Below, piece after piece: positions 10,069 through 13,100 of a DNA stretch of 64,000 bases. The stretch is from the NCBI GenBank assembly GCA_965204375.1, contig OZ241986.1, positions 2,208,001 through 2,272,000 on the forward strand. Reading direction: 5' to 3'. Position 1 is the stretch's first letter. Each line of letters opens with the position of its first letter. A program made the translations under genes and the position numbers. Origin of the DNA: Candidatus Latescibacterota bacterium. Lineage in GTDB: Bacteria > Latescibacterota > UBA2968. The notes below the pieces were generated by a model. It saw only the letters and a list, made by a program, of their open reading frames with translations, made no database searches and was not told the origin of the DNA.

Positions 10069-10169
10069 AAGTAAGAAGTGAAAAGTAAGAAGTGAGAAAG
10101 CCACCCCAAACCGCCTAAAGGCGGGTGCTTCATCACACTTCACACTTCTGCCTTCACACTTCACACTTC
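10069..10169. repeat. Inverted arrays of 7-bp repeats around a small hairpin
   Basis: AAGTAAG/AAGTGAA/AAGTAAG/AAGTGAG, then CCGCCTAAAGGCGG, then ACACTTC units running into the stop codon. Confidence 0.75.
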
Positions 10170-13100
10170 CATCGGTAACCCCACAAATAACCGACTATAC
10201 TCATCTGTCAACGGATCGCGCTCGCCCTTTTGCGCTGCGCGGGCAAAGACCACACCCGGCTTTTCCGACCTGCGCGCCCGCGCCAAAACGCCATATCCAC
10301 CGGGCGCACTCTGCGTTTCCAGATCGCTCTGAATCGCCAGCATCTCCGCCAGCGCATTGGCCAAACCCCAGCGCGCACCTATCGCCCGCGCAAAAAGCTC
10401 CTCTGGCGTCAGCCCCTCTCGAAAACCGTGCTTCAGGGGCGTAAACCCACCCTGATCATTCCGCGTCACGCCCTGGGGAGCCACATAAAGTCTAACCTGC
10501 TGCCAATTGGCACGCGCACCACATTCCACCAGAAGCGCGGGAATCCCGAGATCATCGTCGTCATATCCGCGAAATCGCGCCAGCACAGCCGACACCTCAT
10601 CGGGATAATCGCGCCAGACATCTGGGTCATCGCCCTCTGGTCGATCGGGCCAATCGAGCGACGAACCGATAAACGCACTCATCGACGCTCCTGTCTTAAG
10701 CGCGGCATCAAACCCTCTATCCCACAATCGCGCTGCCAGATCCAATGCAGCCTTCGAGCCATCGCGCGCTATTGCAGCCGCCATCCAGTCCATCACCTGA
10801 TACTTATCGACAAATAACCCCTTTCGCTCAACCTCATCGCCGACAATCTCCGCAATCTCCTGCAATCCCTCATCCGTCATACTCATATACGCCAGGCCAA
10901 ACAGCGCGTCGTGCATCGGGTGTACCTTCTCGCGTGCAATCAATCCCGGATCCCGCTTCAGATGCGCCACTGCCGATAGATGCGCTTCAGCCGACCGCTG
11001 TCCCTCTTCAGTCACCGGCACAAAAATCGCCACTTGATCGCCATCAAAATCCATATTCATCATCTTGCAAATCGCCACACACACGCGAATTGCCTCACCT
11101 TCCACGCGCACCGGACGACACGCCACAAAAGCCATCGGCGAAAACGCGGGATTGCGAAGCACCACGGCCCACAATTTAGCCATAGCTGCATCCAGGGCTT
11201 CCTCCGCTTTCCTCGACCGCCTATCCACTTCTTCAGCACCCACCTCTCGTGCTGCAAACGGCCCAAACAACGTCCACGCCATTTCCTCGGGCACACCGAC
11301 CTGATCGTATCGCAATTCGGGTGCAGGCACAGCCACCGAACGCCCGCTGAACAACGCCCGCGCCTGAAATTGCAAACGCGACAACTCGCAAAATGCGCGA
11401 ACCCGCTCAGACAGCGTCTCAACCGCACGATCCACCAATATATCTGGCGCACCATTGGCAATCATCTCACTCAACCGGTTATTGGCCTCTCGCAATTCTC
11501 GGGGCACATCTCTCCCACTCACATGTGTCAATGAATACCCCGGCAGCCACGGATGCGGAACCGGACGCGCAAGCGCGACATCTCCACCGCGTTTCAACGA
11601 AAACTCGGTGCCGCGTTCATCCAGTTCAACAGCCACCCCACCTCTTGCCAAATGCCCAATTAGCTCATCAAACTGAGGAGACGGCGTAGTGGGAGCAACA
11701 GACCCCGCAACGACGCGGTCAGCCAGCGTATCGGCATCATCTCGATCTACCGCACACGTATTGAACAAATCGTCAATCACCCCAAAAGCACCCGCTTCTC
11801 GCAACGCCAAAAACTCTGTCTCGCCCAACCTTTGATCGTGTTGATCCGGCTTCACACCCATGTGAATTTTATCTGCTGCCAGATGCAACGTGCGTCCCCA
11901 ATACACCCACCCCACTGTGGTGCGACGCGGCAGCGTTTTCCCATTCACCGTCAGCGTCTCCATACCATCTTCTGCCAGTTCTAAAGCCTTCAACTGCGCC
12001 CGCATCTCATCGTCTTTGGGCGCACTGAGCACAGGAATAATAACCGGCTCTCCCTCGGCCTTTGCAATGCGCCCGGCCACAGCTTCGCGCACCTGACCAA
12101 TATTCAATCGCGACGGCAAACCACACACACTCACAATAAGTTCCACAGGCGTGCCATCCGACAATCTGGGCATATCTTCATCTCGCAAAATGCGCGACAC
12201 CACACCCTTAAAACCGTGCCGATTGCTCAGTTTATCGCCCGACGCAACGCGATTGGGCAACATCATCCGGTTCGCAGCCGATTCGCTGATCACAACTGCA
12301 TCTTCGTGTGTATCACCATTCCACGCCATAAACGCGGTCAGCAAATTGTACCCCGTCCAGAAATGCGAATCGCACGGTTCACATCCCGTCTGCACCAGCG
12401 CGGGTTCCGACTCCAGTGTTTTGCCGTCATATTGCGCGTGATACGCGTGCCACACGCCTTGCTCATCGCGCTGCATATCGGGACTCGGCGCGCCAATCCA
12501 CTGCCGCATCATATTCACGCCCATCAAAACGCGATTGGTATCATTGTGTTCCAAAAACGGGACTACCGAAGCACCTATCCCCAACCGCTTTTCAGGTGCA
12601 TCGTCTTCAATCACCAGCTTGCCATCGCGAATAGTCGCCCCTTGAGCCACCTCTAAAATCCGCGCGAGATTCGGTCCCTCAGGCGTGCAATAAGGACACA
12701 CGCGCCCATCGTGCGACGGATGATAGCAATTCTCTATTCCCTCATCGGCCTCACCGATAATTGGGATCAACGTCACCCGCCGCAAATGAACGTACATATC
12801 CTGCAAATTGGTCGCCTGCAAATACTGAGAGGTCGGTTCTTCCGTAAAAAACGTGTGAATCCAATCTCCTAACGGCATCCATGTGTCAACGGCATCTCCC
12901 AGCATCTCTGGCATATTTTCCAACCGCGCGGCAATATAATCGCGCACTTGCTCGCCCACACACCGAATATCAGCACGCGCCAAATCCACATCCGTCGGGG
13001 CTGGAACCACCGTGCGAAAAAAGCCATCTACCTTAAACCGCCCCCATTCGTCGGGCTGAGGAATATCTTTGTACACAACCTCTTGCCCCCCCTGAATCGT

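Follow-up and report, generated by a model that had tools for sequence, protein, structure and literature searches.

A stretch of 64,000 nucleotides from the genome of a Candidatus Latescibacterota bacterium (contig OZ241986.1, positions 2,208,001 to 2,272,000; this whole stretch is hereafter called the window) carries a three-gene unit on its minus strand, on which all genes and elements located below also lie. The unit consists of an extracytoplasmic function (ECF)-type sigma factor gene (15179..15799), an ATP-binding cassette (ABC) transporter gene (13290..15086) and a gene for a beta-beta' fusion in a single chain (10161..13250), which was recognised from its open reading frame (ORF) and translation, its Pfam domains and an AlphaFold2 (AF2) model, and which we call the mini-RNA polymerase (mini-RNAP). 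An initial annotation had pointed to positions 10161-10440, corresponding to mini-RNAP residues ~937-1029 and the stop codon, i.e. the last ~93 codons, and had proposed that the trigger loop, which is considered a key element for catalysis, fidelity, pausing and cleavage in every cellular RNA polymerase (RNAP), is lacking there. Sequence comparison and structure modelling indicate that the mini-RNAP is indeed naturally devoid of a trigger loop, that the flagged stretch is its true C-terminus and that this is a trait of a whole family; the annotation was right on this loss and silent on the much larger losses elsewhere in the chain and on the sigma partner. We assign a probability of roughly 0.6 to the reading that the mini-RNAP is a sigma-dependent minimal single-chain RNAP which catalyses without a trigger loop.

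The mini-RNAP ORF encodes 1029 amino acids (aa) from a TTG at 13250, or 1028 aa from a conserved ATG at 13247, and ends in a stop codon at 10161-10163; the strings quoted from it in the initial annotation are present in the translation as written. Pfam places Rpb2_3 and Rpb2_6 (PF00562; E 5.8e-40, 138 bits against a cut-off of 23.4) in the first half of the protein and Rpb1_2 (PF00623; E 8.9e-16, 59 bits against 25.3) in the second half. The NCBIfam models for rpoB, rpoC and rpoBC fusions also match, all far under their cut-offs: the full-length rpoC equivalog TIGR02386 gives 113.9 bits (cut-off 963.5), the full-length rpoB equivalog TIGR02013 gives 175.2 (801), and the ~2850-aa beta/beta' fusion models NF007172 and NF011417 give 168.4 (5372) and 167.6 (4632). 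The AF2 model, with a mean predicted local distance difference test score (pLDDT) of 84.3 and a predicted template modelling score (pTM) of 0.77, structurally resembles both beta/Rpb2 (Z up to 26.7) and beta' (Z up to 22.6), and the chain comprises the parts of a two-barrel core, namely a beta-type double-psi barrel, a beta'-type DxDxD barrel and a bridge helix after an F-loop. Since the host genome, available as one 6.34-Mb contig, also has standard rpoB and rpoC genes (for 1256 and 1363 aa, respectively) some 300 kb from the mini-RNAP, the latter is an extra paralogue.

Relatives of the mini-RNAP occur in at least 189 species genomes from several phyla, with genome labels including Latescibacterota, Poribacteria, Chloroflexota, Ktedonobacteria, Planctomycetota, Armatimonadota, Hydrogenedentota and others, and family members are labelled 'hypothetical protein' at NCBI. 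In the following, conservation counts refer to 243 non-identical relatives aligned by hmmalign, and neighbourhood counts to 80 loci from the 189 species genomes (81 with the window). An origin of the mini-RNAP in phages or plasmids was considered and rejected, as 0 of 38 phage records and 0 of 68 plasmid records cover at least 80% of it, their matches being canonical or phage multisubunit rpoB/rpoC. Separately, one relative's genome (G005:C1:36659-37156) holds a 1923-aa open frame similar to the family profile over its beta' barrel region (E 1e-34), besides the canonical rpoC and the mini-RNAP of that genome; to judge from this match, it may be another RNAP-like paralogue.

To map what has been kept and lost, the family hidden Markov model (HMM) was aligned to the genome's own beta and beta'. 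The N-terminal ~118 aa (12897..13250) have no sequence match to canonical beta, the HMM aligning from beta 443 on, so that beta 1-442 (lobes/protrusion) is replaced by about 118-130 family-specific residues; structural alignment of the N-terminus still begins at model residue 1, against Rpb2 ~27-31. There follows a beta-like fork region with a PFLEH..NR..MG motif (residues ~119-253; 12492..12896), which aligns to own beta 443-527 and 599-~650 and to PDB beta chains, and in which R240 (236/243) and R249 (239/243) are kept. The flap is missing: a junction of ~7 residues (12285..12305) stands for beta 771-1023, with flanking HMM domains in which residues 212-315 correspond to beta 599-770 and residues 323-535 to beta 1024-1252. 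The beta double-psi barrel (SNRHGFKG), the switch-3 region and the beta C-terminal part (11610..12284) again align to own beta (E 2e-42) and to PDB chains, and the barrel residues are kept in almost all relatives (R344 243/243, H345 234/243, K348 236/243, E316 227/243 and D317 236/243). The mini-RNAP follows beta to within 4 residues of the canonical C-terminus and then enters beta' at ~263. Absent is beta' 1-262, which holds the zipper, the zinc-binding domain and the lid, and the rudder is deleted as well, visible as a 25-residue gap before FSGRSV in the profile alignment. The beta' clamp helices, a coiled coil at residues 584-621 (11388..11501) and in cellular RNAP the docking site of sigma region 2, are retained, as seen both from the profile match to beta' 263-~310 and from model helices at 584-598 and 603-621. 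The catalytic NMDFDGD motif (residues 732-738; 11037..11057) is evident from the translation, Pfam and the family alignment, with D734 kept in 234, D736 in 240 and D738 in 240 of the 243 relatives and the whole DxDxD triad in 232. Thus, the parts retained are the fork, PFLEH..NR..MG, the ED pair, RH.KG, switch 3, the clamp helices, a shortened switch 2, NADFDGD, the funnel helices, the F-loop and the bridge helix.

One position within the catalytic motif is variable. Residue 732 (11055-11057), the first of NADFDGD, is N in 144, D in 46, E in 40 and Q in 7 of the family members; it is equivalent to beta' N458, which in cellular RNAP reads the sugar of the nucleoside triphosphate. Variation at this normally invariant site is unusual and could bear on substrate choice.

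The F-loop-like segment and the bridge helix (residues ~925-980; 10311..10478) are the last parts of the mini-RNAP that can be aligned to beta', pairing with own beta' 665-774 and with residues 697-798 of the Clostridium thermocellum chain 8i23_D; this segment also matches cyanobacterial beta'' 105-192. When the family profile is compared with PDB beta' chains, homology stops inside the bridge helix (profile 326-419 to 8i23_D 697-798), and two family profiles searched against the genome's own beta' with hmmsearch, all filters off, end at 770-774 of 1363 residues; hhalign likewise pairs columns 26-421 with own beta' 264-772 (probability 99.9, E 3.7e-34). Canonical beta' runs for ~590 residues past the end of the aligned part, with the trigger-loop motifs EPGTQLTLRTFH at ~903 and GGLPR at ~1102, which are both absent from the mini-RNAP, where ~50 residues remain. 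The AF2 model shows a bridge helix of 32 residues (949-980), a low-confidence linker and helices at 988-994, 998-1007 and 1017-1022, after which the chain ends. There is no histidine after residue 941 of the mini-RNAP and no mostly-histidine column after 981 across the 243 family members, and the residues after the bridge helix are modelled as three short helices without a conserved histidine, not as a helix-loop-helix with a catalytic one. The distance from the start of the bridge helix to the C-terminus is 80-99 residues in 242 of the 243 relatives, the sole exception being a truncated record, and all full-length relatives among the 150 matches listed when 1.8 billion cluster representatives were searched end at query position ~1022-1029. 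Sequence, profiles, structure model and family-wide length therefore all support the absence of a trigger loop.

What follows the bridge helix is a C-terminal tail of three short helices (residues 981-1029; 10164..10310), delimited from the AF2 model and the family alignment. It carries a conserved G[YF]xVLxRAxR motif and a second conserved motif, with R991 kept in 241, R994 in 220 and E1010 in 234 of 243 relatives, and the ratio of nonsynonymous to synonymous substitution rates (dN/dS) of residues 937-1029 is 0.05-0.16 in nine of ten comparisons and 0.58 in one. The initial annotation had described this end, the last 25 residues, as resembling region H of beta', the switch 1/5 segment that closes with ..EAA..G..D.L.G.KENVI.G, a likeness that we could not confirm: HMMER places profile 444-468 on 8i23_D 1142-1166 at -2.6 bits, Smith-Waterman alignment picks the matching canonical segment 1296-1319 with a score equalled by 227 of 300 shuffles, hhalign gives no significant support for equating the tail with region H, and structural alignments (VIA-align) of a separately modelled beta' half, in which the tail has a pLDDT of 50-70, stop at the bridge helix. 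It is plausible, from a pattern and position that fit without reaching significance, that the tail is a remnant of beta' region H (switch 1/5).

Whole-gene dN/dS lies at 0.11-0.22 across ten comparisons with relatives, with selection even along the chain, and such low values together with nearly invariant catalytic residues argue for a maintained enzyme and not a relic. The same evidence bears on the idea that the protein does not polymerise at all and acts either as a core mimic that titrates sigma, similar to a decoy or an anti-sigma factor, or as a nuclease using the two-metal site; a decoy and a nuclease had been among the options of the initial annotation. Joint expression with a single sigma under an autoregulated promoter is what one might expect of a feedback regulator, and most loci have no other conserved anti-sigma gene beside the pair. 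However, a decoy needs none of the Asp triad (232/243), the ED pair, RH.K, the fork and the bridge helix, all of which are conserved, the ED and RH.K residues being nearly invariant, and purifying selection acts evenly along the chain. Further, intrinsic cleavage in cellular RNAP depends on the trigger loop according to excerpts of PMC5467207, and this element is absent here. Decoy and nuclease-only functions are thus disfavoured, and we regard them as very unlikely.

The polymerase gene is coupled to the gene of its putative cognate sigma factor, identified from Pfam, TIGR02937 and the neighbourhood. Its start is listed at GTG 15799; because the promoter overlaps this codon, we move the start to TTG 15772, which is likely the true one and gives a protein of 197 aa. 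The protein has Sigma70_r2 (PF04542) and r4_2 (PF08281) domains, scores 120.9 bits against TIGR02937 (cut-off 42.9) and has the characteristics of ECF (group 4) factors. An HMM of the ~200-aa neighbour located a sigma gene immediately upstream of the mini-RNAP, in the same orientation, at 77 of 80 loci spread over several phyla, with stop and start codons that often overlap, and no neighbour other than sigma is conserved across phyla among the 81 loci. Across 168 genomes of the window's phylum, the RNAP is present in 64 and the sigma in 61, with both in 58, RNAP only in 6, sigma only in 3 and neither in 101; this is a hand tally over related and hence not independent genomes, and the three sigma-only cases are all fragmented assemblies. 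In one genome the cassette is present twice, and each copy has a separate sigma. The sigma alignment has a mean column identity of 60%, linker included, and the linker contains a P.W[ML][IV]D motif in which P121 and W123 are invariant and D126 is kept in at least 90%.

As a side observation on the sigma gene, in one locus (L029, 7388-8001) and in genomes G088, G095, G087, G071 and G170 the cognate sigma is split over two frames or carries one in-frame stop, with the RNAP frame open. These interrupted frames could represent sigma decay, sequencing error or recoding.

We also predicted the structure of a complex between sigma and mini-RNAP residues 300-1029. The prediction scored 0.52 against 0.00 for the best control, with at least 35% of contacts agreeing between runs and a partner pLDDT of 66; the pass mark is reached by 58 of 80 solved complexes and by 2 of 110 mismatched pairs, and at scores of 0.60 or less by 7 of the 80 and by both mismatches. 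For the prediction tool, a pass in this range is more likely false than true except where there was prior reason to expect the pairing. As complexes of ECF sigma with RNAP have already been solved, the pass may also reflect likeness to these.

The function of the trigger loop might instead be supplied in trans, through the open secondary channel or cleft, with the chain alone being nearly inactive, a possibility that we consider unlikely. Candidates would be the conserved sigma linker, a clade-specific DksA/TraR-type zinc-finger protein or an unlinked factor. The conservation of the linker motif is unusually strong, the genes for the zinc-finger protein and for a 315-aa protein are found immediately ahead of sigma at 19 and 18 of the 81 loci, respectively, and in the yeast plasmid RNAP the C-terminal beta' regions reside on a separate small subunit, K2ORF7p (excerpts of PMC6211774). 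Sigma, however, is the only partner conserved across phyla and is an initiation factor, not a secondary-channel factor, and the zinc-finger protein occurs only in the window's clade and in some of its relatives, down to ~49% identity, where its gene belongs to a separate unit closed by a terminator. The sigma linker of cellular holoenzymes nears the active site from the RNA-exit side and not through the secondary channel, which speaks against the linker as the completing factor. Neither does the window's own genome hold a second trigger-loop-bearing domain: a scan for Rpb1_5 (PF04998) found one domain above the cut-off, located in the canonical rpoC. A separately encoded trigger-loop module was accordingly rejected, as beyond rpoC the scan returned five identical, stop-bearing matches below threshold (E 0.03). 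These are five identical ~390-base stretches with stops at 270644, 1003021, 1950091, 4782412 and 5231135 of the genome, i.e. a five-copy repeat.

Predicted transcription signals flank the cassette on both sides. Upstream alignment and a position weight matrix (PWM) identified an ECF-type promoter before the sigma gene, TGAACCTTCGGACATTGGGCGGTGTC (TGAAC-N15-GGTGTC; 15795..15820). TGAAC is found in 34 of 37 non-redundant regions upstream of sigma, in nearly all cases followed after 15 bases by GGTGTC, and the promoter precedes a Shine-Dalgarno-like AGGAGG/AGAGG, with the start codon 20-22 bases past the -10 element. A hairpin search recovered a terminator-like hairpin (15825..15852) closing the gene pair upstream, and because its T run abuts TGAAC, the sigma unit would have its own promoter. 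At the other end, an intrinsic-terminator-like hairpin with a 14-bp stem and a T run, from the same search, ends the sigma-ABC-RNAP unit (10033..10065).

The ABC transporter gene between sigma and mini-RNAP was assigned from the Pfam domains ABC_membrane and ABC_tran, and is a lineage-specific insertion into the cassette that stands outside the conserved pair: its cluster (c10) occurs in 10 loci, window included, and 10 near relatives have a sigma-RNAP gap of 1.2-2.3 kb. Additionally, contigs from RNA libraries of coral and sponge metatranscriptomes (two studies) cover the mini-RNAP gene in relatives that are 90-99% alike; such contigs indicate presence in RNA libraries only, where DNA carry-over is possible, and level, strand and start cannot be read from them. 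One of these contigs joins 13259 to 15201 without the ABC transporter gene, and gaps in cover, such as X1 14044-14895, are not read as evidence.

Just past the mini-RNAP stop (10070-10170, minus strand) lie tandem heptamers of the GAAGTGT type and, 40 bases on, a near-complement run. A 38-base stretch of the heptamers has 116 + 14 matches in the genome with at most 4 mismatches, mostly in long arrays, and this repeat accounts for a depth spike of at least 10-fold and for many loose ends in the RNA-library contigs. A small RNA was considered as the source of the spike, at 10068-10351, and rejected in favour of the dispersed heptamer repeat.

Searches for further promoters of the same kind point mainly back to the operon itself. 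A PWM scan of the window's own 6.3-Mb genome scored the sigma promoter at 36.9 bits, the next best site at 19.2 and the control maximum at 23.2; with no second site above the controls, we make no claim on a regulon of sigma. The exact pattern has 3 matches in this genome, against ~3 expected by arithmetic and 0 for the reversed-pattern control, and 36 matches in five other genomes, against 7 for the reversed pattern, with the sigma promoter always recovered. Most of the matches in these five genomes are located ahead of unrelated frames or, it seems, within genes, and the only recurrent downstream proteins at pattern matches are sigma itself and one paralogous sigma, as judged without all-against-all clustering of the frames. 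Among the other matches, G004:C1:738551 and G002:C1:2110833 share an extended string, CCCACCTACGGTGTC, and one of these sites falls ahead of, or inside, a frame whose translation has a 4Fe-4S-like CxxCxxxCP motif. The CCCACCTACGGTGTC sites are probably conserved coding sequence.

These results also bear on the possibility that the mini-RNAP has a job other than promoter-driven synthesis of mRNA, such as making short RNAs or primers, RNA-templated synthesis or R-loop formation, with sigma serving only to express or deliver it. The lid, zipper, flap and rudder of cellular RNAP make up the path by which RNA leaves and keep it apart from the DNA, and their loss would fit such a job, as would the absence of a detected regulon beyond the own promoter and the N/D/E/Q variation at the N458-equivalent position. 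A precedent within the wider superfamily is the RNAi polymerase QDE-1, which according to excerpts of PMC9508822 has both DNA- and RNA-templated activity. We nevertheless consider a different job improbable: the sigma linkage with its stop/start overlaps points to a stoichiometric holoenzyme partner, the fork, switch 2/3 and clamp helices, which handle duplex DNA, are retained, and both YonO and the yeast plasmid enzyme are described as transcribing genes despite similar losses.

The preferred reading, a sigma-dependent polymerase acting without a trigger loop, would work as follows. The enzyme would be an rpoB-rpoC-type fusion cut down to the two barrels, fork, switches, clamp helices, funnel, F-loop, bridge helix and a conserved tail of ~50 aa. 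The ECF sigma would pair with it through the retained beta' clamp helices, and the pair would start RNA synthesis at TGAAC-N15-GGTGTC promoters; since one such promoter drives the own operon, the module could activate itself. Nucleotide addition would take place on the intact two-metal site in the absence of the loop, and the basic tail residues R991 and R994 may take over part of the phosphate contacts. Expected costs would be lower fidelity, a lack of intrinsic transcript cleavage and an open secondary channel. Further, as there is no flap, lid or zipper, there would be no closed RNA exit channel, and initiation and RNA displacement must differ from those of the cellular enzyme.

Several points weigh against this reading. 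The beta flap docks sigma region 4 in cellular RNAP, and its absence leaves the positioning of region 4 of the two-domain sigma unexplained. The bridge helix and F-loop are near to those of the cellular enzyme, and the mini-RNAP may therefore behave like a slow deletion mutant and not like YonO. The complex prediction, made with a truncated RNAP, lends weak support to sigma binding. Three of the 80 loci are without a same-strand upstream sigma (L065, L079 and L084, with the contig of L079 beginning at the RNAP gene), and at the threshold applied, six genomes of the phylum carry the RNAP and no sigma. It is equally conceivable that the host core enzyme, joined by this sigma, reads the promoter, and no convincing target beyond the own operon was found with the pattern in the own genome and five others, or with the PWM in the own genome. 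One RNA-library contig (X1, record 1) crosses the terminator into the next gene, which fits DNA carry-over as well as expression.

Among known systems, cellular beta/beta' is closest in sequence, sharing both barrels, the fork, the ED pair, clamp helices, NADFDGD, F-loop and bridge helix (E in the 1e-40 range), and, as gene linkage suggests for the mini-RNAP, it pairs with a sigma-70-family factor. In contrast to the ~2600 aa of cellular beta/beta', the mini-RNAP has ~1030 aa and is without trigger loop, jaw, flap, both lobes, beta' 1-262 and rudder, and unlike canonical rpoBC it is a patchily distributed extra paralogue. The rpoBC fusions (NF007172/NF011417) have the same order of beta then beta', and only this gene order is shared. 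Deletion of the trigger loop in cellular RNAP greatly slows catalysis; such engineered deletions have a similar active-site framework of bridge helix and F-loop but are laboratory mutants, whereas the mini-RNAP is natural, under purifying selection and equipped with a conserved replacement tail.

Closest in concept is YonO of the Bacillus prophage SPbeta, which is, as the mini-RNAP, one chain (~100 kDa) with both barrels and no trigger loop, a likeness by description only; it is phage-borne and remote, whereas the mini-RNAP is a close beta/beta' derivative without a phage record at 80% cover or more. We know of no parallel in YonO to the sigma linkage of the mini-RNAP. According to excerpts of PMC5467207, YonO has no trigger-loop homology, shares only few active-site residues with cellular RNAP and is on a par with it in the speed and efficiency of RNA synthesis, but is less accurate and shows no detectable hydrolysis. 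The RNAP of yeast linear plasmids, pGKL2 Orf6, is a 982-aa Rpb2::Rpb1-type fusion that, in the parts of PMC2919709 and PMC6211774 covering it, is described as keeping the barrels, bridge helix, fork and switch 3 and as lacking lid and rudder, and one survey, in excerpt, lists no trigger, switch 1 or switch 5 homology for it (PMC2919709). Compared by description only, this enzyme (K2ORF6p) is eukaryotic and plasmid-borne, is accompanied by a capping enzyme and a helicase and uses an upstream conserved sequence (UCS) promoter and no sigma, whereas the mini-RNAP has its short tail fused and no conserved small-subunit gene; the two reductions are probably independent.

Beyond the enzyme itself, the sigma (~22 kDa predicted) and the mini-RNAP chain (~115 kDa predicted) may together form a self-contained, self-activating second transcription system, the smallest sigma-dependent RNAP known and one with its own private promoter class, a proposal that we put forward tentatively and with somewhat less than even odds. 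If true, the system would work without trigger loop, flap, lid, zipper, rudder, alpha and omega, and initiation and elongation under a sigma would not require most of the mass of cellular RNAP. In nature, the system may sustain a small programme while the host polymerase is shut off, for instance by inhibitors from phages or by antibiotics aimed at parts that are missing here, and the compact module would be of practical use as a ready-made orthogonal expression system. With YonO being a very distant loop-less relative and the mini-RNAP still plainly a beta/beta' derivative, a natural loop-less enzyme would also allow a like-for-like test of the contribution of the trigger loop, instead of one with a crippled mutant, and it raises the question of how sigma functions on a core that has clamp helices and no flap. 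Neither a description of the family nor any other account of a chromosomal bacterial mini-RNAP coupled to its own ECF sigma and promoter was found in searches of the full-text literature or in the body of the article on ECF reclassification (PMC7826278), a search whose scope did not extend to supplements and one key review.

The surroundings of the cassette contain further regulatory genes. The gene pair upstream of sigma encodes a 343-aa protein (16815-17846, minus strand) carrying a DksA/TraR-type C4 zinc finger at its N-terminus (Pfam E 1.3e-8, above the cut-off; NCBIfam below cut-offs) and an acidic 315-aa protein without a family match (15878-16825, minus strand); the pair may regulate the sigma or the polymerase. 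On the other side, BlaI-type repressor genes, each followed by BlaR1 (M56 peptidase) fused to two to four TonB_C domains, are located at 7107-9940 and 1503-3790 (both minus strand), and the BlaI and BlaR1 clusters are found in 15 loci each, most of them in the window's clade and immediately following the RNAP. A 173-aa ORF at 18193-18714 (minus strand) has weak SLATT-domain matches below the cut-off (E 5e-5). The GC skew of the window ranges from -0.15 to -0.30 over 1-32 kb, is slightly positive over 34-44 kb and negative thereafter, and the long ORFs in 1-23 kb are nearly all on the minus strand.

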